This document shows, piece by piece, positions 1,531 through 58,986 of a DNA stretch of 64,000 nt. The translations under genes were made by a program, and so were the position numbers. The first letter of the stretch is position 1, and every line of letters starts with the position of its first letter. Below the pieces are notes generated by a model. The model was not told where the DNA came from, did no database searches, and saw only the letters and a list, made by a program, of their open reading frames with translations. Origin of the DNA: an uncultured Candidatus Saccharibacteria bacterium (GTDB lineage: Bacteria; Patescibacteriota; Minisyncoccia; Phycocordibacterales; UBA9973); contig CAYVDC010000008.1 of assembly GCA_964450735.1 (NCBI GenBank), forward strand, positions 647-64,646, written 5' to 3'.

Positions 1531-2541
1531 ATGAAACCAAAGAAAAAAGAATCACTCATCCTCGGACAGATGCTGCAGAAAATCGCTCCTCGAATCGGAG
1601 CGACGGTTATTTCAGAACCAGAATGGGGGATCGTAGGCCAGATCACTTTCAAGAGCGGCAGGCATTCTTACTATAGATATAATACGCTCGACCTCAATCC
1701 GTTGGGTGGTTCTGAAATTGCCACAGACAAAGACTATTCATTCTTCTTCATGAAAAAGATGGGATACCCCGTTGTCCCTGGATCCAAAACATTCTTCTCC
1801 GACGATTGGGCTCAAAAAATCGGTTCCAAAAGAACCATAGATGCAGCTTATCGCCATGCGCAAAAAATCGGTTTTCCTGTCATTGTAAAACCAAACAGCG
1901 GAAGCCAAGGATCGGGGGTTTCCCTTGTACATACCAAGCTTGAATTTTATAAAGCCCTTCGTTCTCTGTTCAAAAAAGTGCGAATCGTACTGGTGCAAAA
2001 ACCGGTTCGGGGTAAAGACTATCGTGTCGTCGTTCTCGACAAGAAAATAATTTCAGCGTATGAGCGTATTCCTCTCAATGTTGTCGGCAATGGCAAATCC
2101 ACAATCAAACAGTTGCTCAACATAAAACAAAAAGAATTTATTGCTTCGAGCCGCGACACGCAGATCAGGGCGGACGATCCTCGAATTTCACTCAAGCTGA
2201 AACATCAGGAATTGGATTTTACTTCTGTTCCTGAGAAAGGGCAACGAGTGTTTCTGCTTGATAATGCCAATCTTTCTACTGGCGGTGATTCATTGGATGT
2301 AACAGGCACTATTCACCCGGCGTTCAAAAAAATTGCCATTCAATTGACCCGCGACATGGGGCTTCGGCTTTGCGGCGTTGATCTGATGGTGGAAGGCGAT
2401 ATCAGCCAGAAACCAAATAAGTATTGGGTTCTTGAAATCAATGCAGCGCCAGGGCTCGATCACTACGTTAAGATCGGCAAAGCGCAAGAAAAGATTGTAG
2501 AAGATTTGTATCTCGAAGTACTCAAGCATATGGAAAAATAA
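1531..2541 (+). CDS. ATP-grasp domain protein (RimK/D-Ala-D-Ala ligase-like fold)
   Basis: IVKPNSGSQGSGVSLV nucleotide-binding motif and overall ATP-grasp layout. Confidence 0.5.
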   Translation: MKPKKKESLILGQMLQKIAPRIGATVISEPEWGIVGQITFKSGRHSYYRYNTLDLNPLGGSEIATDKDYSFFFMKKMGYPVVPGSKTFFSDDWAQKIGSKRTIDAAYRHAQKIGFPVIVKPNSGSQGSGVSLVHTKLEFYKALRSLFKKVRIVLVQKPVRGKDYRVVVLDKKIISAYERIPLNVVGNGKSTIKQLLNIKQKEFIASSRDTQIRADDPRISLKLKHQELDFTSVPEKGQRVFLLDNANLSTGGDSLDVTGTIHPAFKKIAIQLTRDMGLRLCGVDLMVEGDISQKPNKYWVLEINAAPGLDHYVKIGKAQEKIVEDLYLEVLKHMEK

Positions 2542-2544
2542 TCT

Positions 2545-2985
2545 ATGGAAACTCCGCTTCAAGAATTACAAAAAGTACTGTCTGATTGCCAAGGAGCAAT
2601 TTTGTATAAGCCGTTTGCAGGGGAGGTTGATTATTCAGACCCAACATTTCCTTTCAAGATACATTCAGAAATAATTGTATTGCCAAGCGACAAAGAAACC
2701 GATCCATTTGTATTGGCCGCTAAATGTGTAGAACAGTTTAAAAACAAAAATCCTTTTATTTTAATTCCTGGAACTCAATTTGATATGTTTGGCACTCGTC
2801 ATGGAAAAGGGGGAGGTTGGTATGATCGCTTTCTTTCTAAACTGCCAAAAACTTGGCCGAAAATTGGAATTGCTCATGAATCCAAGTTTTCATTTTCCCA
2901 AATCAAGAGAAAGTCATGGGACATTCCAATGGACTGGCTGATAGTTCTTGAAGGAAAAAAGTGGACAGTATACAAAACTCATTAG
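2545..2985 (+). CDS. 5-formyltetrahydrofolate cyclo-ligase family protein (short)
   Basis: IPGTQFDMFGTRHGKGGGWYDRFL matches the MTHFS family core motif (G.G.GYYDR). Confidence 0.6.
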   Translation: METPLQELQKVLSDCQGAILYKPFAGEVDYSDPTFPFKIHSEIIVLPSDKETDPFVLAAKCVEQFKNKNPFILIPGTQFDMFGTRHGKGGGWYDRFLSKLPKTWPKIGIAHESKFSFSQIKRKSWDIPMDWLIVLEGKKWTVYKTH

Positions 2986-3000
2986 AATTCGTTTTTCCGG

Positions 3001-3537
3001 ATGAATCGGGCTTTTACATTGGCCCTAAATGCGCTAGACTACCCCTATATGACAGATGTCCACAAGCGCCCGTCCTGGGATGAATACTTCATGGAAATAA
3101 TGGATGCTGTAGCAAAGCGTGCTACATGCGATAGAGGCCGTTCAGGCTGCGTTATTGCCCATGATAAGCGCATTGTAGCAACCGGTTACGTCGGCTCGGC
3201 TGCAGGCACCAAGCACTGCGACGAGGTTGGTCATGAGATGGCTACCGTTATCAATGATGACGGAACCGAGAGCAAGCATTGCATCCGTACCGCTCATGCA
3301 GAACAAAATGCCATTGTCCATGCTGCCCGCGTTGGAGCAGCATTAGAAGGCAGCACGCTCTACTGCAACATGACGCCATGTTACGCATGCGCAAAAATGA
3401 TCATCAACGCAGGCATTGTTCGCGTTGTCGCAAAGAAAGATTACCATGCAGGCGGACGATCGAAAGAAATTTTTAAGGAAGCAAATATCAAATTTGAACT
3501 TCTCAACGAAGTGATAGAAGTATACTCAAATCAGTAA
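3001..3537 (+). CDS. dCMP deaminase (cytidine/deoxycytidylate deaminase family, ComEB-like)
   Basis: HAEQNAI zinc-binding motif plus PCYACAKMIINAGI (PCxxC) motif. Confidence 0.75.
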   Translation: MNRAFTLALNALDYPYMTDVHKRPSWDEYFMEIMDAVAKRATCDRGRSGCVIAHDKRIVATGYVGSAAGTKHCDEVGHEMATVINDDGTESKHCIRTAHAEQNAIVHAARVGAALEGSTLYCNMTPCYACAKMIINAGIVRVVAKKDYHAGGRSKEIFKEANIKFELLNEVIEVYSNQ

Positions 3538-3538
3538 T

Positions 3539-4075
3539 ATGAAAAAAGTCATTATCGGTTCACAGAACCCAGTTAAAATCGAGGTGGTGCGCCAGGCGTT
3601 TGAACAAGTCTATCCCGAAGACCAGTTTGAATTCATTGGATGCAAAGCAAAGTCCGGCGTTTCCGACCAGCCAAAATCAGATGAAGAAACATTGTCTGGC
3701 GCATTCAACCGCGTGAACCACTGCAAGGAACAATATCCGGATGCAGATTTTTGGGTTGCTTCAGAAAGCGGCGTCATTGACGTTATTCAGCACATGTTTG
3801 AAACAAGCCACATCGTTATCGAATCCAAAGACGGAACGATCGGCCGCGCGAAAGCTGCTTCATTTGAAATTCCAAAACCAATCGCAGATGACATCCGCAG
3901 GAATGGCGTGGAGCTTGGAGTGGCGGCAGACAACCTCTTTGGCGTATCAAATTCAAAGCAGCAGGGAAGCATTATCGGTCTTCTGACCAACAATCTCGTC
4001 AACCGAACCTCAACGTATGTACAGAGCGCCATCTTTGCGCTTATCCGCCACAAGCACCCTGAGCTCTATAAATAG
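3539..4075 (+). CDS. inosine/xanthosine triphosphatase, YjjX-like (non-canonical NTP pyrophosphatase)
   Basis: N-terminus MKKVIIGSQNPVKIEVVRQAF closely parallels E. coli YjjX (VVCATTNPAKIQAILQAF); size about 175 aa. Confidence 0.6.
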   Translation: MKKVIIGSQNPVKIEVVRQAFEQVYPEDQFEFIGCKAKSGVSDQPKSDEETLSGAFNRVNHCKEQYPDADFWVASESGVIDVIQHMFETSHIVIESKDGTIGRAKAASFEIPKPIADDIRRNGVELGVAADNLFGVSNSKQQGSIIGLLTNNLVNRTSTYVQSAIFALIRHKHPELYK

Positions 4076-4122
4076 TTTGACTGATTCGCGAAGCATGGTA
4101 GAGTGAAGAAAAATGATAGAAT

Positions 4123-4683
4123 ATGATACCGAGCAAACACTTTACCGACCAAGACATTGAGGACATTGCGAATGCCTCATCATTTACTGAATTATTTAAA
4201 ATAGCTGAAAGGATACTTTCTAAAATGCCAGACGGTGTAGCGGGAATATGCGATCCAATTTCACAACACCGGGCAAAACATGAAAAGGAAACACTTTTTA
4301 CAAAAACAACCCAGGCTTTGATTGAAAAAGGATATGTAATTTTTGATGACCGTCCTTTTTTTAAGAAAATCAATGAACTGAAAGAGAATTGGTTTATTGC
4401 CCACAACCCTTCTAATGGAATTTGTACAGCGATTGTGGATGAATTTTTTATGCCGCTTCTTGCGACACGGAAAATCAAAACACTTTTAACCTTTCCAAAT
4501 TTCGACGTTTTCTATACCTCCTATTGGGAAGGCAGCCATGCAAAAGACTATGGCATAAAAGTACATGAGCTACCTTTTAACTGGCATGCAACATGCAGTG
4601 TTGAATCGCTTGCAGGTTTCGGCCTTGTGAAAGATACTTCAAATACAGGCCAAAACCCTGCTCCGCTTTCAGCAACTAATTAA
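4123..4683 (+). CDS. hypothetical protein
   Basis: 186-aa ORF in same orientation as the upstream nucleotide-metabolism genes; no recognisable motif. Confidence 0.4.
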   Translation: MIPSKHFTDQDIEDIANASSFTELFKIAERILSKMPDGVAGICDPISQHRAKHEKETLFTKTTQALIEKGYVIFDDRPFFKKINELKENWFIAHNPSNGICTAIVDEFFMPLLATRKIKTLLTFPNFDVFYTSYWEGSHAKDYGIKVHELPFNWHATCSVESLAGFGLVKDTSNTGQNPAPLSATN

Positions 4684-4707: not shown

Positions 4708-4745
4708 AAATAGCCGACCTAACCCGTTGGCTATTTTTTTATATA
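4708..4745. terminator. bidirectional hairpin terminator between convergent genes (overlaps folA stop)
   Basis: ATAGCCGAC..GTTGGCTAT stem followed by T7 on + strand and A-run on - strand. Confidence 0.4.
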
Positions 4746-5216
4746 TTCAGTAAAGACGAGACGGTACTGATTTTCATTATCAGCCTCCTGAATTTTTTCT
4801 GAACTTTTTTTCCAGCTGTCATCGATAGTGGGGAAGAATGTGTCCGCGTCGAAAGCCTGATCAACATGAGTGATATAAAGCTTGTCCGCATAGGGAAGGC
4901 TCATCTTGTACATTTCAGCTCCGCCGATGTCGAATACTTCCTCGTCGGTATTTTTGAAAAGTTCCAATGCTTCTTCCATCGAATGTGCTACTTCGATACC
5001 TTCAGCTGAATAATTCTGATCGCGAGTAATGACGATATTGCGGCGGTTTGGCAGGGCATGGGCAATTGATTCAAATGTCTTGCGTCCCATGATAACGGCA
5101 TGCCCGCGAGTGGTGTCTCGGAAATGCTTCATGTCGGCAGGAAGATGCCAGAGAAGCTGGTTGTCTTTGCCAAGTTCGTTATTTTTGCCGATAGCGGCGA
5201 TGAGGGAGAGGATCAT
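4731..5216 (-). CDS. folA: dihydrofolate reductase
   Basis: MILSLIAAIGKNNELGKDNQLLWHLPADMKHFRDTTRGHAVIMGRKTFESI is a classical DHFR N-terminus; start moved to internal Met (track ORF 4731..5285 would overlap upstream gene). Confidence 0.8.
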   Translation of the reverse strand: MILSLIAAIGKNNELGKDNQLLWHLPADMKHFRDTTRGHAVIMGRKTFESIAHALPNRRNIVITRDQNYSAEGIEVAHSMEEALELFKNTDEEVFDIGGAEMYKMSLPYADKLYITHVDQAFDADTFFPTIDDSWKKSSEKIQEADNENQYRLVFTEYIKK

Positions 5217-5251
5217 AAACGTATAGTAGCGTATTTCAAAGTTTTTTTCAT

Positions 5252-6949
5252 CTATGCCACTTCTTTTTGGTAGCACTCCACACAATAGATTCTTTTGTTC
5301 GTGTCTTCAGGAAACGCTGTCGTAATAGGCTTTTCACAATTCGCGCACGTGCTTTCACGAAGGATCGGCAGATTTAACTTCATAAAGCGTTCGCTCTCTC
5401 GGCACTTTGGGCAGCGAGTAGGAAGTGGGATGTTTAACTTTCTGAGAATCGAAAGCTCAAGGGGGGCGATGCGGTACTTTTTGTCGCAGGTCATGCAAGC
5501 AATGGCCTCATTGGTGATCGCGTCGGTGACTTCTGCAATCGTTTGAGGTAAACCATATCCATCAATGGTTGCTTCAACATTCTGCACTTCTTCATCGTTC
5601 CAGAAATAACCCTCGCTAAGAGCCTGTTCTTTTGTCTTCCAGAAATACTTCGATGCGTTCGCGCCATTGTAGGCGAATTTTGAAAATTCCGTTGGGAAGA
5701 ATTCACCGTAGAAATATTCTTTTCCTGTCTTATCGGTGTATGGTTGGACTTTCATATCGGCGATAATTTCCTCTCGCATTTTTTCATATGTTTCTTTGTC
5801 GTATTCTTTGTTGAGGATGGCGTACTTTTTGCGTTTGAGGTTAACGCAGCCAAGGTTGTACTTCGCGGCTACACACCACATAGAATACTCAGTTTCCATG
5901 ACATCAGGGAAGCAGTAGACGGAGAATTTTACCTTGCTGACATTGTCGCCAATGTTCGCTGATTCGTAGATAAGTTCTGCTCCATTGCCCCAGCCAGAAT
6001 AATCTTTGCAGTCTCGTGCAGGCGCGACAGTTATAAACTGGCAGTCACTGCAGTCTTCAGCACCGGTTGAGATAAACATGTTCTTGGAGTTCTTGGATTG
6101 GTACGTGTATTCCCCGGTTACATTAACGTTCATGGTATTGCCGCTGTATTCACGATACGGGTAATGATCCCAAAATTCCTGAATCTGCGCTTTGAGGTTC
6201 TCAATGCCTTCGCGAGTATCAAGTCGGAATTCTTTTACTTTTTCAAAATATTCTTCTTTTGAATATTTTTCGTTAAAGATGCAGTATGAAGCGCCGCGCA
6301 TATTCACGCAGCCGACGCAGTTGATGCAGCCGGAAAGATTTCTCGAGAACCAGACATCAGTACATGAATCGCACTCTTCAGAATAGAAAGTACGGTAACT
6401 TTTGTTTTGCCCGATCGATTCGTAGCACAACTCGGATTCCTGCATTCGCATGCAGTCGGAAATATCCTTACTATTGTTCAAGTATGAAGAGAAGCAGACA
6501 TTTTCACAGTAGTCGAGCCAAGTCGCAAGCAAGCAATTTTTGCCGTATGCGATTGCGTTGCAATAGTCGCAATCTTTGAGGGTGAGGTAGGTGGTTTCTA
6601 GTGCACAATATGGAGTCTTGTTTGAAAGTTCTTGTACCTGCTCCAAAAACGGCCGCGAAGGATCGTAATCCATTGCGTACTCGCTGCCGTCCCACTCATC
6701 TGCCCACCAGCATGGCTGGCAATAGACAGTAATGTCCTGCGTTGGGGGATACATTGAAAGGGTACGCTTCGCGCATTTGTCGCAGTTTCTCCAAAACAAA
6801 GACCAGCCGTTCACAAATGAAGTTCGTCGGATCAATCGGCAAAGGGAACACCATGTCGGAGGAGGCACACTTACCTTCGAGTAATAATCAAAATCTTCTG
6901 AAGAGATTGTGAAGTCATTTCTGCAGTTTTGGCAGGATTTAGTTTCCAT
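5252..6949 (-). CDS. cysteine-rich protein with N- and C-terminal tandem CxxC zinc-ribbon pairs; function unknown
   Basis: 565-aa ORF; four CxxC pairs in first 75 aa (CQNC, CSLC, CDKC, CQPC), four in last 85 aa (CMTC, CPKC, CANC, CVEC), many further Cys/Trp/Tyr between; translationally coupled to flanking genes. Confidence 0.6.
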   Translation of the reverse strand: METKSCQNCRNDFTISSEDFDYYSKVSVPPPTWCSLCRLIRRTSFVNGWSLFWRNCDKCAKRTLSMYPPTQDITVYCQPCWWADEWDGSEYAMDYDPSRPFLEQVQELSNKTPYCALETTYLTLKDCDYCNAIAYGKNCLLATWLDYCENVCFSSYLNNSKDISDCMRMQESELCYESIGQNKSYRTFYSEECDSCTDVWFSRNLSGCINCVGCVNMRGASYCIFNEKYSKEEYFEKVKEFRLDTREGIENLKAQIQEFWDHYPYREYSGNTMNVNVTGEYTYQSKNSKNMFISTGAEDCSDCQFITVAPARDCKDYSGWGNGAELIYESANIGDNVSKVKFSVYCFPDVMETEYSMWCVAAKYNLGCVNLKRKKYAILNKEYDKETYEKMREEIIADMKVQPYTDKTGKEYFYGEFFPTEFSKFAYNGANASKYFWKTKEQALSEGYFWNDEEVQNVEATIDGYGLPQTIAEVTDAITNEAIACMTCDKKYRIAPLELSILRKLNIPLPTRCPKCRESERFMKLNLPILRESTCANCEKPITTAFPEDTNKRIYCVECYQKEVA

Positions 6950-7793
6950 TTGTTTTATTTAAAACATCAGTTAATACATCAAGTCTGAAGATCATGAACC
7001 GTCGCAGTTCCTCTGTTCGTTCCGTCGGATCTTTTTCTTTTAAAAAATTAAAATCATCACTCATGATATTCAATTTAGATTTTTTAATTATTGCACTCCA
7101 GAACGCAGTATCTTCTAGCCCTTCTTTGAGAGCCTCAGATTTTTTTTGTAGCTCATCCTTCGCTTCAGGCATTTTAGGTTGAACTGGAAAGCCAAGAGCC
7201 GTTAATAAATTAATAACACTTCTCTTTAAACTCTCTTTTTCTCCATACGATGGAAGAACAGCTAACCTCCATTTTATATCTTTAATTAACTTGTCTTTTG
7301 GATAGTCGGGCGAATATGTGGCATCTGCCCAAGAACCATGGAATGCTTCTCCATAGTCATAGTGAGCAAATTTATTTTCCTCGGTCTTCGTTACATTATC
7401 TCCGAGAAATAATTTATCCCAATCGGAGAAAACATATTCTAACAAAAAGATTTCCGCTTCCAGTTCGCCTCTTCGTGCGGGGTCGGTATTTTCAAGATTC
7501 ATTTTCCTTGAATAATAAGTGCCGTCTTTTTCTATTATATCTGAAGAATGCAGAATACCCTTGGTTAGAAGAGATACAAAGTGTTCTACAGCTGGATTTT
7601 GCCGGTGGGGTGCTATATCTATTCTCTTCTCTATATATTCGTCTCCGCTGTCTACGTCTTCAAACTTACTGATGGGCACTTTGATTTTTTTATTGTTTTC
7701 GTCGAAAGAATAAAAAGTCTCCGAGGTTTCTTTTTTAACCAAGTTCAGTTTGTCGGATAGAGGGGAGGTATTGAAGGGGTTGAATTTTTCCAT
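6939..7793 (-). CDS. hypothetical protein (operon member between thyA and Cys-rich gene)
   Basis: about 285-aa ORF from MEKFNPF; stop overlaps start of downstream gene by 11 nt, start abuts thyA stop. Confidence 0.5.
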   Translation of the reverse strand: MEKFNPFNTSPLSDKLNLVKKETSETFYSFDENNKKIKVPISKFEDVDSGDEYIEKRIDIAPHRQNPAVEHFVSLLTKGILHSSDIIEKDGTYYSRKMNLENTDPARRGELEAEIFLLEYVFSDWDKLFLGDNVTKTEENKFAHYDYGEAFHGSWADATYSPDYPKDKLIKDIKWRLAVLPSYGEKESLKRSVINLLTALGFPVQPKMPEAKDELQKKSEALKEGLEDTAFWSAIIKKSKLNIMSDDFNFLKEKDPTERTEELRRFMIFRLDVLTDVLNKTNGN

Positions 7794-7797
7794 ATGG

Positions 7798-8757
7798 TTA
7801 CACCGCAATTGGTGCTTTAATTGCCGGATGTGGCTCGTAATTCTCAAGAGTGAAGTCTTCGTACTTGAAATCGAAAATATTTTTCACTTCAGGATTAAGT
7901 TTCATGGTCGGCTGTGGACGTGGTTCGCGAGAGAGCTGTTCTTTCGCTTGTTCGATGTGGTTGAGATAGAGGTGCGTGTCTCCGCCGGTCCAGATGAATT
8001 CACCGACTTCAAGTCCGGCAACCTGCGCCATCATCATAGTGAGAAGCGCATATGAAGCGATATTAAACGGAACGCCCAAGAAAAAGTCTCCGCTTCTTTG
8101 GTAGAGCTGGCACGACAGTTTCCCGTTAAGTACATGAAACTGGAAAAGGGAATGGCATGGCGGCGGCGCGTGATTGTGGTCATGGATGAGTTCGAAGATT
8201 TCTCCGACATTCCAGCCCGAAACCATGATGCGTCGTGAAGACGGATCGTTCTTCAACATATCTACAACATTTTGAATCTGGTCGATCTCATTTCCTTTGC
8301 GTGTTTCCCATCGGCGCCATTGCTTGCCGTAGATCGGTCCAAGTTCACCCCATTCGTTTGCGAATGCATCATCGGCTTTGATCTGCTCAACAAACCATAC
8401 AAGTTTTGCGTCCCATTCCGGAGAGTAACGAGGAAGGGTTTCGTTGAGTCCATTTTTTTCGAGGTATACCTGGAATGCCCATTCATTCCAAATCTTCACG
8501 TCGTTGCGAACCAAATATTTGATATTGGTATCACCAGTCAAAAACCAAAGAAGTTCGTGAATGATTCCGCGGATGAATACTTTTTTGGTTGTGAGAAGGG
8601 GAAAGCCTTTTGAAAGGTCGAATCGCATCTGGTGTCCAAAGACGCTCCGTGTACCCACACCTGTTCGCTCGGTACGGTCAGTTCCGTGGTCGAGAATATG
8701 CTGCATAAGCGACAAGTATTCCTTGTCTGCGTGTTCATGAGCTTCGTAGGATTTCAT
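7798..8757 (-). CDS. thyA: thymidylate synthase (ThyA, long form with about 50-aa insert as in L. casei-type TS)
   Basis: [41 protein letters not shown] (catalytic Cys) motifs. Confidence 0.9.
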
Positions 8758-8994
8758 ACATTGAGTGTAGCAAATTGAGGGGAGAGATTCTAATTTGACA
8801 ATTATATTGATACATGTTACGATAGCTCTATCATTCTCACTTTATCTTATCGGGAATGCGATTGTGGCATTGCCCTCTTCTAAATGTGTTGTCTTGACCC
8901 AGAACCTATTGGTCATGCGACACTCTGTCGCGCATTTCATTTTGCCTGACCAAAGGTAGAGCTATCGGGTTTTGACCATGACAACATAATAACC

Positions 8995-10428
8995 ATGCCT
9001 ATACAGCATTCAGGTTCGCCACGCAGTGGGGGACCAAAACGTTCCTTTTCAGGTTCGTTTCGCGCGGAACCATCACGTGGTCCCCGTAAATTCGGGAGCG
9101 CAGCAAGCAGCGGAACTTCTACAAGTTCGGCCAGCGGCAGCTTTCCACGAAAGACATTTAATAGCAGCTCACGACCAGCATATGGTGCAAAGCCATCATT
9201 CGGTTCAAAGCCATTTAACGCAGGACGCAAGTCGTTCGGCGGAAGCACTGGCGCACGAGGAGGATTCAAGTCTTCATTCGGCGGCGGAGGGGGAGGACGT
9301 GGCGGTCGCCGCGGAGGAAATCCAGAGCGCATCGATACTTCACGATTCATCCGAAAGGCTGAAGTCGTAGAACTGAAACCATATGTGTCAAAGCACACAT
9401 TTGCTGATTTCCCATTCGATGCAAAACTCCATGCGACAATCGCAAAGAAAGGCTTCGAACATCCGATGCCGATTCAGGACCAGGCAATTATGCCGGCTCT
9501 TGAAGGCCGAGACGTCCTTGGTCTTGCAAACACTGGAACTGGAAAGACGGCAGCATTTTTGCTTCCGCTCATCCAGAAAGTCATGTTGAGCAAGAAAGAA
9601 CAGGTTCTCGTCCTCGCTCCGACTCGCGAACTTGCGACTCAGATCGAACAGGAACTTATGGACTTCGTTCGACCGCTCGGAATCTTTTCAGTGACATGCG
9701 TCGGTGGAATGCCGATCACCAAACAGATCCGCGAACTCAAGCGAGGCGTACACTTTGTCATCGGAACACCGGGACGAATCCGCGACCTTATTGAACGCAA
9801 GTCTCTTATCCTTGCTCCATTCAAGAGCATCGTCCTCGACGAAGCTGACCGAATGTTGGACATGGGATTCCGAGATGATATGGAATACGTCATGAAATTG
9901 ATGTCGCCAGATCGTCAGACATTATTCTTCTCAGCGACACTTTCACCTGAAATTAAAAAACTCACAGAAAAATATCTTAAAAATCCAGTTTCAATTTCAG
10001 TTGTCGTTCGCGACACTTCACGAAACGTCGACCAGGACGTTATCCGAGTCCTCGACCGTTCGAAGAAAATCGAGCAGCTCCACGATGTGCTTATTCACGA
10101 AGGTTCAGACAAAGTCTTGATCTTCCGCGAAACAAAGCGCGATGTAGACGAACTCGAGCGAGATTTGCGAGCACGTGGCTTCAAAGTTGGCGCCATTCAC
10201 GGCGACAAGCGAAATCGAGAACGCGTTCGAACTCTTGAAGCATTCAAGACGAATAACATCAGCATCTTGATCGCAACCGACGTTGCAGCCCGCGGACTTG
10301 ATATCCCGGATGTGACTCACGTGATCAACTACGATGTTCCTCAGACTTACGATACATACGTACACCGCATCGGCCGAACCGGCCGCGCCAACAAAAAAGG
10401 CAAGGCGCTTACGTTCGTACGAGGATAA
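8995..10428 (+). CDS. DEAD-box ATP-dependent RNA helicase with N-terminal RGG/Ser-Gly-rich region
   Basis: Walker A GTGKTAAF, VLDEADRMLDMGF (DEAD), SAT, HRIGRTGRA motifs; N-terminal GGRGGRRGG repeats. Confidence 0.85.
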   Translation: MPIQHSGSPRSGGPKRSFSGSFRAEPSRGPRKFGSAASSGTSTSSASGSFPRKTFNSSSRPAYGAKPSFGSKPFNAGRKSFGGSTGARGGFKSSFGGGGGGRGGRRGGNPERIDTSRFIRKAEVVELKPYVSKHTFADFPFDAKLHATIAKKGFEHPMPIQDQAIMPALEGRDVLGLANTGTGKTAAFLLPLIQKVMLSKKEQVLVLAPTRELATQIEQELMDFVRPLGIFSVTCVGGMPITKQIRELKRGVHFVIGTPGRIRDLIERKSLILAPFKSIVLDEADRMLDMGFRDDMEYVMKLMSPDRQTLFFSATLSPEIKKLTEKYLKNPVSISVVVRDTSRNVDQDVIRVLDRSKKIEQLHDVLIHEGSDKVLIFRETKRDVDELERDLRARGFKVGAIHGDKRNRERVRTLEAFKTNNISILIATDVAARGLDIPDVTHVINYDVPQTYDTYVHRIGRTGRANKKGKALTFVRG

Positions 10429-58811: not shown

Positions 58812-58986
58812 TCGCTAACTTTACAGAATTAGCCTGCTGTGCTATATTGCCTTTGCCGTAGACAACAGGTGGGCATACCCATAAATCCTGTTTAGGTCGA
58901 TAACGTAATTCTTCGGAAGCGTTGTCACGGAATTTTATGCGGCCTCTATGGGCCGTTTTGTGTTTTTAACTGAAATCTCAAATATT

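Follow-up and report, generated by a model that had tools for sequence, protein, structure and literature searches.

A proposed composite thyA-folA gene array with a putative kinase-like gene in the Paceibacteria

Layout of the locus

The window, the whole 64,000-nucleotide stretch of DNA analysed here, carries four genes head to tail on the minus strand in the order thyA, gene B, gene C and folA, as seen in the ORF list and the sequence. The features of the locus are the following:

1531..4683, plus strand, convergent cluster of five genes, based on Pfam and NCBIfam matches
1531-2541, plus strand, ATP-grasp ligase of this cluster
2545-2985, plus strand, short 5-formyl-THF cyclo-ligase-like protein of this cluster
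3001-3537, plus strand, dCMP deaminase of this cluster
3539-4075, plus strand, NTPase_I-T of this cluster
4123-4683, plus strand, 186-aa protein without assigned family, of this cluster
4708..4736, palindromic hairpin with an 11-bp stem between the convergent 186-aa gene (plus) and folA (minus), terminator-like on the plus strand
4731..5216, minus strand, folA, dihydrofolate reductase, 161 aa, last gene of the array (PF00186)
5252..6949, minus strand, gene C, 565 aa, member of a Paceibacteria-specific multi-copy family, with a putative double zinc ribbon, two Cys-rich predicted beta-solenoid repeats and a second double zinc ribbon
5273..5497, minus strand, C-terminal zinc-ribbon module of C, C485xxC488-x24-C513xxC516 and C535xxC538-x17-C556xxC559, with sub-threshold profile matches
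5735..6652, minus strand, central Cys-rich repeat region of C, about residues 100-405, two related halves, predicted beta-solenoid
6710..6934, minus strand, N-terminal zinc-ribbon module of C, C6xxC9-x24-C34xxC37 and C56xxC59-x17-C77xxC80, 8 Cys
6939..7793, minus strand, gene B, 284 aa, predicted atypical kinase-like phosphotransferase of an undescribed family whose members adjoin thyA/folA in other Paceibacteria as well
7356..7424, minus strand, catalytic-loop-like segment of B, D124-W-D126-K127 ... N133 ... D146 (HYDYG), from the alignment, with codon positions from the sequence
7798..8757, minus strand, thyA, thymidylate synthase, 319 aa, first gene of the array (PF00303, TIGR03284)
8758..8994, divergent intergenic region between thyA (minus) and a DEAD-box helicase gene (plus), the sole non-coding stretch upstream of the array

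A 4-nt gap separates the thyA stop codon (TAA, 7800-7798) from the ATG of gene B (7793), genes B (TAA, 6941-6939) and C (ATG, 6949) overlap by 11 nt, and 35 nt lie between the stop codon of gene C (TAG, 5254-5252) and the ATG of folA (5216). All four ORFs of the preliminary description were found where it had placed them, and its naming of thyA and folA was upheld by profile matches; its coordinates for gene B were also right, whereas the length is 284 aa and not 285. Longer TTG-initiated ORFs for gene B (7847) and folA (5285) were considered and are unsupported, because the homologues begin at the ATGs chosen in that description.

A scan of the minus strand within the array for terminator-like sites found none, and promoter-like matches were at chance level (9 seen, 8.0 ± 3.0 expected). 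Co-transcription and translational coupling of the four genes are therefore plausible, judged solely by their spacing, and the four probably form a compact, co-transcribed, composite array. Its promoter region is presumed to be 8758..8994, where the promoter-like matches lie on the plus strand only. The hairpin at 4708..4736 is possibly a bidirectional terminator; read on the minus strand, it takes in part of the folA stop codon and has a weak T-run.

thyA, folA and their neighbourhood

The thyA product matched PF00303 over its full length (profile positions 1-266 of 266, E = 1.6e-118, 395 bits, cutoff 24.3) as well as TIGR03284 (454.9 bits, cutoff 108), and is a full-length ThyA by both curated models. 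Likewise, the folA product matched PF00186 over nearly its entire length (positions 2-158 of 159, E = 2.9e-60, 203 bits, cutoff 25), while every score against the trimethoprim-resistance subfamily models was under the cutoff of the model. At the amino acid level the thyA of the window is 97.5% identical to that of relative L087 and only 61% to those of L086/L004; folA shares 88% identity with folA of L004.

Together with the convergent cluster, thyA and folA make up a dTMP/folate neighbourhood which is syntenic in relatives, and genes of the same kinds flank thyA/folA in L086, L087, L092 and L098. In the lineage this neighbourhood holds SHMT, a dCMP or dCTP deaminase, a MazG-like pyrophosphatase, an ATP-grasp ligase and a CofE-like ligase. 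thyA and folA represent an ordinary thymidylate-cycle pair in a dTMP/folate neighbourhood common to this Paceibacteria lineage.

The slot between the two genes differs among the three nearest relatives, L004, L086 and L087, all of which lack gene B; the gene following thyA has 428 or 274 aa and is unrelated to B. In L004/L086 the interval contains a 48-aa ORF, the 428-aa unknown, a gene C and a sigma-70-like gene, and in L087 the 274-aa unknown, TrmB on the opposite strand, a 124-aa ORF, a gene C and a 226-aa gene on the opposite strand. Gene B is missing where thyA and folA persist, so it is dispensable or replaceable in these genomes.

Gene B, a putative kinase-like family

Profile searches gave no curated family for either middle gene, and both are uncharacterised as had been supposed; gene B was without a family match in Pfam, NCBIfam, PHROG and PADLOC. 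An origin of the two genes as phage remnants, named beforehand as the finding that would speak against a metabolic role, was not borne out: neither gene B nor gene C has relatives in IMG/VR or GenBank phage records, and gene C also had no PADLOC match and one weak PHROG match (E = 2.2e-5), to a PHROG of unknown function. An exhaustive profile search for relatives of gene B recovered 134 clusters with E ≤ 1e-3, of which 30 reach E ≤ 1e-30.

In the alignment of 46 members, N133 and D146, which lie 13 residues apart, are the sole invariant residues, and D126 is near-invariant. K56 and D124 (both near-invariant) and E70 (invariant) stand out only within the 16 closer relatives; K56 and E70, each less than 90% conserved among the 46 sequences, are candidates for the ATP-anchoring Lys of an N-lobe strand and its partner Glu in the next helix, and their positions fit a predicted strand (52-55) and helix (67-81). 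The sole match of the family profile to a PDB sequence was to the catalytic and activation loops of PI3K-alpha (DRHNSN...HIDFG), a weak one (E = 0.26) that placed N133/D146 on N920/D933 and thus opposite the catalytic-loop Asn and the DFG Asp. As aligned, the family appears to have a catalytic-loop Asn and a metal-binding DFG-type Asp at the spacing of about 13 residues expected of a kinase-like fold. The proteins listed by Foldseek were mostly kinase-fold proteins, with weak fold matches to atypical kinases, and the gene B family is probably kinase-like.

Compared with the PI3K/PI4K-like kinases, MavQ, PI4K type II, HipA/CtkA, actin-fragmin kinase and CotH, gene B differs in several respects. 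Sequence and profile searches gave no significant match to any kinase family. Gene B has no Asp at the canonical position of the catalytic base (DxxxxN or DRHxxN), five residues ahead of the Asn; its D124-x-D126-(H/K) motif lies upstream, separated from the Asn by a variable insertion of 5-30 residues. The protein is also small (about 285 aa) and helical in its C-terminal half.

Genomic contexts of gene B

The neighbourhood of gene B was readable in 12 lineages, and in four of these (the window, L098-100, L092 and L093/94) it adjoins thyA and/or folA. The B proteins of these four lineages share only 31-39% identity, and the thyA genes at the linked loci are of three different types. In L098/99/100 the operon is a clean thyA-B-folA; its junctions are a 1-nt gap and a 4-nt overlap, and genes of the dCMP deaminase, MazG-like and ATP-grasp kinds lie at its flanks. 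The order in L093/94 is folA-B, and in L092 it is thyA, gene B fused to a P-loop domain, folA and dcd. The fused domain had its top match in the dTMP kinase model TIGR00041 (E = 1.3e-7, model positions 1-98 of 196), at 31.5 bits below the cutoff of 83.25; PF02224 was matched as well, and so was PF02223, at 23 bits below the cutoff of 27. By these matches the domain is classed as P-loop NMP-kinase-like and nearest to Tmk, not as a certified Tmk. The four linked loci have wider synteny in common and may therefore stem from one ancestral arrangement and not from independent events.

In at least four lineages (L083, L088, L090 and L001) gene B has no nucleotide-metabolism neighbour. In three it lies inside or beside C-family genes, namely the window, L084/85 (C-B-C) and L096/97 (C-B-C-C-C-C), and the overlapping junction of B stop and C start is the same in the window and L084 (two of the three B-C lineages). 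The position of B within arrays of C and the shared overlapping junction suggest a relationship between B and C, instead of or besides one with thymidylate.

The proposal that both middle genes are components of thymidylate or folate metabolism, or of its regulation, is thus partly supported for gene B, by the four of 12 lineages. Its adjacency to thyA/folA recurs in divergent genomes; it is not universal, being absent in the nearest relatives. For gene C the same proposal does not hold, as described below.

Gene C, a multi-copy family with putative zinc ribbons

More than 1000 Paceibacteria proteins belong to the gene C family, and the genes are often found in tandem arrays of up to 8 paralogs. 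GTDB species representatives provided 80 C loci, each viewed with ±6 kb, and thyA/folA was near C in one only, that of the near-identical relative L004 (C 94% identical to that of the window). Exact-protein look-ups for the closest homologues added L086 (95%) and L087 (80%), from the same genus-level clade and nothing wider, and the linkage did not extend to divergent genomes. In this clade C keeps its place between thyA and folA while the genes next to it change. At other loci C forms part of an RluA-C-L19 block (24 and 21 of 80 loci) or of a tandem array of paralogs. None of the 80 loci contained a B-family gene, and most C genes are therefore without a B partner. Gene C is one member of a large family that is present in multiple copies and is not tied to thymidylate.

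The Cys residues of both terminal modules are invariant among 35 homologues (8 of 8 in the N-terminal module), and the modules are homologous to each other (E = 6e-11). The curated family search returned nothing but sub-threshold CxxC-x17-CxxC/treble-clef matches in the C-terminal part, PF23477 at 22.5 bits (cutoff 27) and TIGR04272 at 22.3 bits (cutoff 36); some homologues have a precomputed PF23477 match. Two Cys sets, C56/C59/C77/C80 and C535/C538/C556/C559, have the exact spacing of the CxxC-x17-CxxC domain (TIGR04272/PF23477 zf_Tbcl_2), as units at residues 56-80 and 535-559. In small proteins of Methanosarcina mazei this domain binds zinc, as measured by ICP-MS (PMC12704099). Unlike these, C is a 565-aa multidomain protein in which every x17 unit has a CxxC-x24-CxxC ribbon as its partner, and a Cys-rich repeat core of about 400 aa lies between the two ribbon pairs. 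The short, regular, Cys/Ser/Asn-rich repeats of the core resemble beta-solenoids such as curli CsgA, insect and plant antifreeze/ice-binding proteins and left-handed beta-helix acyltransferases, and the model of the central region superposes on beta-solenoids only. C is probably a zinc-binding cytoplasmic protein.

Origin of the array

With slightly more than even confidence, we regard the array as composite, with gene B as an older, thymidylate-linked kinase-like partner and gene C as a later insertion. Gene B would represent an undescribed family that keeps a kinase-type Mg/ATP site, formed by the DxD(H/K) motif, the invariant Asn and the invariant Asp 13 residues later, and would act as a phosphotransferase around dTMP in the metabolism of pyrimidine deoxynucleotides. 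It might phosphorylate thymidine or deoxyuridine, dTMP, or dTDP; alternatively, gene B may control that phosphorylation step. Gene C would have been inserted later, and specifically in this lineage, into a thyA-B-folA operon. The role given here to gene B is an inference, since the gene is missing from the nearest relatives and is found within arrays of C as well.

A less likely account is that both middle genes are passengers in an interval that tolerates accessory genes, there by historical accident and co-transcribed only through the compactness of the slot. The different cargo in the same interval of the closest genomes (L004/L086 and L087) fits this account, as do the swapping of thyA itself between lineages, the occurrence of C elsewhere in 79 of 80 loci and the unrelated contexts of B in at least four lineages. 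It accords poorly with the presence of B beside thyA/folA in four lineages at such low identity, with the clean thyA-B-folA operon with its overlapping stop and start codons and with the fusion to a dTMP-kinase-like domain; with about 1000 genes in the genome, we estimate that a gene would lie by chance next to one or the other of two given genes with a probability of <1% per lineage.

That B and C are a functional pair, inserted as a unit and independent of thymidylate metabolism, for example with the kinase B modifying or regulating C-family proteins, is improbable. The absence of B from the sampled C loci argues against it, together with the occurrence of B without C in L098, L092, L093, L083, L090 and L001, and the many C genes in these genomes make adjacency by chance likelier. 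It would account for B inside C arrays in L084/85 and L096/97 and directly upstream of C in the window, and for the common B-stop/C-start overlap. Very improbable is a HipA/CtkA-like protein-kinase toxin or other conflict-system component moving between variable slots, since the contexts examined have no conserved small antitoxin-like or HTH neighbour, PADLOC and the phage and viral-contig searches gave no relatives, and B forms part of housekeeping operons in which stop and start codons overlap.

In the most far-reaching interpretation, gene B would found a new kinase-fold enzyme family that catalyses one of the phosphorylations in the dTTP synthesis or salvage of Paceibacteria, perhaps as a non-orthologous thymidine/deoxyuridine kinase, dTMP kinase or dTDP kinase; we hold this to be possible but less likely than not. 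It would explain both the thyA-B-folA order and the dTMP-kinase-like fusion in one lineage. Few parts of metabolism have been mapped as well as thymidylate synthesis, which also belongs to the small number of nucleotide pathways kept by the reduced Patescibacteria. If true, a conserved kinase-signature gene in thyA-folA operons would be a sign that the dTTP supply of a huge uncultivated radiation involves a missing or alternative enzyme, or a regulator. The C family, being very large, highly conserved and multi-copy in Paceibacteria, merits study of its own.

Comparison with known thyA-folA operons

We know of no described thyA/folA operon that includes a gene such as B, and a literature search for thyA/folA operons with a B-like gene found none. 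The synteny and co-occurrence of thyA and folA are established, as cited in PMC11974145. Like the thyA-folA operons (thyA-dfrA; T4 frd-td) and the bifunctional DHFR-TS, the array encodes ThyA and DHFR together and on one strand, in keeping with the coupling of the two enzymes in the thymidylate cycle. It differs from these operons in that two extra genes separate the enzymes, and in related lineages the undescribed third gene, B, is a regular member of the operon, in the order thyA-B-folA.

The thyA-folA array

The preliminary description placed four minus-strand ORFs in a tight array, and all four were confirmed at their coordinates, although the second (gene B) encodes 284 aa and not the 285 first given. 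These ORFs and their neighbours are as follows.

Genes of the array and its immediate surroundings
8995-10428, plus strand: DEAD-box helicase gene, divergent from thyA
7798-8757, minus strand: thyA (PF00303, E 1.6e-118; TIGR03284, 455 bits)
6939-7793, minus strand: gene B
5252-6949, minus strand: gene C, encoding a Cys-rich protein
4731-5216, minus strand: folA (PF00186, E 2.9e-60)
4123-4683, plus strand: 186-aa protein gene convergent to folA, without a Pfam, NCBIfam, PHROG or PADLOC family
1531-4075, plus strand: tight gene set converging on folA, gaps between genes 1-15 nt

As read from the sequence, 4 nt separate the thyA stop from the ATG of B, B overlaps the ATG of C by 11 nt, and 35 nt lie between the C stop and the folA ATG. 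No minus-strand terminator-like sites were found within the array and promoter-like matches were no more numerous than expected by chance. With this spacing, co-transcription of thyA, B, C and folA is plausible.

Both middle genes had been described as uncharacterised. In profile-HMM searches of Pfam, NCBIfam, PHROGs and PADLOC, B matched no curated family and C gave zinc-finger matches only, of CxxC-x17-CxxC and treble-clef models to its C-terminus, all below threshold. Literature searches found no paper describing either family. The possibility that the two genes are phage-derived was rejected, as PHROGs gave no family and relatives were absent from IMG/VR and from GenBank phages; judged by these searches, neither qualifies as a phage remnant or as a known defence gene.

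The set at 1531-4075 encodes an ATP-grasp ligase with cyanophycin-synthetase/GshAB-type and RimK ligases as its nearest matches, a 146-aa protein similar to 5-formyl-THF cyclo-ligase over the C-terminal third of that enzyme alone, a dCMP deaminase, and an NTPase of the NTPase_I-T (DUF84) type. The thyA/folA neighbourhoods of two related loci from other genomes, L092 and L098, also contain the ATP-grasp gene, a possible sign of folate (poly)glutamylation. A gene resembling F420-0:gamma-glutamyl ligase (CofE-like) accompanies a Vut_1 transporter gene near thyA/folA in L087 (12537-13887) and L092 (9871-11261). If, as we assume, these organisms do not make F420, a different glutamylated cofactor, for example folate, deserves consideration. 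The 186-aa protein is kept at the same position, with 33-47% identity, in the three nearest relatives of the window locus (L004 9065-9481, L086 11064-11645 and L087 11049-11663).

On the other side, the DEAD-box helicase carries a Gly/Ser/Arg-rich N-terminal extension of about 115 aa ahead of its core (DNA 8995-9340), conserved in L004. The low-complexity DNA of this extension gives rise to a long antisense ORF (8937-9398), which is probably spurious. A ribosomal protein L10 leader (58838-58970, plus strand; 46.8 bits, gathering score 44), about 50 kb from the cluster, was the sole Rfam match within the window; in relatives, L11/NusG genes directly adjoin the thyA/folA cluster. No tRNA genes were found within the 64-kb window.

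Gene C belongs to a large multi-copy family

More than 1089 homologues of C, about 565 aa long and all unnamed, were found in metagenome-assembled genomes of Patescibacteria/Paceibacteria, with about 60% identity across the class, and GTDB species representatives contain at least 553 relatives. The family is very large and strongly conserved in Paceibacteria. Among 80 C loci inspected with 6 kb flanks on either side, thyA and folA were near C in a single one, L004, whose C is 94% identical to that of the window. Look-ups of the closest proteins revealed the thyA...C...folA frame also in L086 (C 95%) and L087 (C 80%). As only these three loci share the frame with the window, the arrangement is restricted to one genus-level clade.

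Elsewhere, C recurs in a RuvX-PilM-...-RluA-C-L19 block, with RluA in 24 and L19 in 21 of the 80 loci, and the copy closest to the C of the window usually lies within the conserved block RuvX-PilM-PilM-...-RluA-C-L19. Tandem arrays of two to eight diverged paralogs on one strand were present in 37 of the 80 (drawn from L003-L082; examples are L069 1-13764, L054, L062, L075, L077 and L080). A Paceibacteria-type PilM-RluA-C-C-L19 block was also seen in L038 (JAMPXW010000001.1), labelled Burkholderiales, which is probably a mis-binned or mislabelled genome. The proposal, by guilt-by-association, that C is a thymidylate or folate component falls on its linkage to thyA/folA in 1 of 80 loci and the close relatives L086 and L087 only; on genomic context, a tie of C to thymidylate is not supported. 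As a single member of a multi-copy family, C was probably inserted between thyA and folA within the clade of the window.

The N-terminal module of C consists of a CxxC-x24-CxxC ribbon and a CxxC-x17-CxxC ribbon and is repeated at the C-terminus (E 6e-11, all eight Cys aligned); between the modules lie two Cys-rich repeat regions related to each other at E 2e-6. The x17 domain binds zinc in small proteins of Methanosarcina (PMC12704099), and with its two paired ribbon modules C is probably a zinc-binding cytoplasmic protein. Comparison with PDB sequences gave no significant match.

Gene B recurs beside thyA and folA

A word-indexed search detected only 4-5 relatives of B, whereas an exhaustive HMMER profile search detected 134 clusters at E ≤ 1e-3 and 30 at E ≤ 1e-30, which overturned B as a near-orphan. 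Gene context was readable in 12 lineages out of these 134 or more clusters, and B adjoins thyA and/or folA in four of them.

Lineages with B linked to thyA and/or folA, other than the window
L098/99/100: dCMP deaminase (opposite strand), thyA-B-folA (1-nt gap, 4-nt overlap), MazG-like, ATP-grasp, L11, NusG
L092: thyA, 618-aa protein, folA, dCTP-deaminase-like gene
L093/94: folA-B, beside MazG-like and L11 genes

The B proteins of these four lineages are only 31-39% identical to one another, and the thyA genes of the lineages fall into three types. In L092, the 618-aa protein between thyA and folA (5866-7722) is a B-family domain fused with a P-loop NMP-kinase-like domain, best matched by dTMP kinase TIGR00041 (E 1.3e-7) and also by PF02223 and PF02224, all below curated cutoffs; representative P0137 corresponds to this fusion in truncated form. 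In one further lineage, L089/L101, a separate P-loop kinase gene lies directly upstream of B.

Guilt-by-association thus fared better for B: the linkage in 4 of 12 lineages at 31-39% identity speaks for it, contexts unrelated to nucleotide genes in another four (L083, L088, L090 and L001) speak against it, and on gene neighbourhood it is supported with caveats. We lean towards B being an enzyme or regulator of kinase-like type, linked to the metabolism of pyrimidine deoxynucleotides, and towards C being an unrelated insertion. This would give a thyA-folA operon with a previously undescribed third member. The B-family gene of L088 (398-1291) is broken into two neighbouring ORFs of 109 and 186 aa, by either a pseudogenising frameshift or a sequencing error.

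That B and C are both passengers in a permissive thyA-folA slot seems rather doubtful. The unrelated contexts would fit it, and B was first read as a passenger from its few relatives and from L001, which has neither thyA nor folA nearby; this was revised after the exhaustive search. Still less probable is a functional pair of B and C independent of thymidylate. B does lie inside C-family arrays in three lineages, namely in the window, in L084/85 (C-B-C, where B stop and C start overlap as they do in the window) and in L096/97 (C-B-C-C-C-C), but a B gene was present in none of the 80 sampled C loci.

Proposed history of the thyA-folA neighbourhood

Synteny of the wider neighbourhood extends across the window, L086, L087, L092 and L098 and covers SHMT, thyA, folA, a dCMP or dCTP deaminase, MazG-like, ATP-grasp ligase, CofE-like ligase and L11 genes. 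In the simplest reading, the ancestral operon would have been thyA-B-folA; the ancestor of the clade of the window would have gained C downstream of B, and unrelated genes would later have taken the place of B, both in L004/L086 (428 aa, with a sigma-70-like gene following C) and in L087 (274 aa, TrmB, 124 aa and 226 aa). The 274-aa (L087) and 428-aa (L086) genes after thyA were rejected as divergent B homologues (hhalign probability about 0.1; no BLASTP match).

The cargo of the thyA-C and C-folA intervals differs among these relatives (L004 4629-5924 and 7748-8437; L086 6638-7924 and 9749-10435; L087 5805-7931 and 9744-10424), being a 428/431-aa unknown, the sigma-70-like gene, the 274-aa unknown, TrmB on the opposite strand and the 124-aa and 226-aa ORFs. 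By gene content, the thyA...folA interval of the nearest relatives is a turnover hotspot.

ThyA of the window (7798-8757) and of L087 (4842-5801) are 97.5% identical in amino acids and 87.6% in nucleotides, whereas the L087 genes flanking thyA are only 73-83% (about 75-80% in nucleotides) identical to those of the window. Conversely, ThyA is only 61% identical to that of L086 (5553-6491) and L004 (3576-4535), whose flanking genes are 87-98% identical. These identities indicate an in-place exchange of thyA among closely related genomes. The GC3 of B is 0.34 against about 0.51 in neighbouring genes; B is also AT-richer than thyA/folA in L092 and L093/94, so the skew is a family trait and was rejected as a mark of recent horizontal transfer.

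Predicted fold of B

A kinase-like phosphotransferase fold is likely for B, though not proven. Structure searches gave weak kinase-fold matches for B and only weak beta-solenoid matches for C. The AF2 model of B was poor (pLDDT 60), with a five-strand sheet, helix, hairpin, helix, conserved loop and helical bundle in order, and kinase-fold proteins dominated its Foldseek list, in which no match was significant. No Pfam kinase model matched any B member, and no Pfam family recurred in 46 of them even at E ≤ 10. That B is a HipA-like toxin is very improbable, as it stands without a partner gene and without a match to defence models.

Across the 46 family members, N133 and D146 are the sole invariant residues and D126 is near-invariant; K56, D124 and an invariant E70 are conserved among 16 closer relatives only. 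N133 and D146 are 13 residues apart, the spacing from the catalytic-loop Asn to the DFG Asp in kinases. The sole match of the B family profile among PDB sequences, at E 0.26, was to the catalytic and activation loops of PI3K-alpha (DRHNSN...HIDFG), with N920 aligned to N133 of B and D933 to D146.
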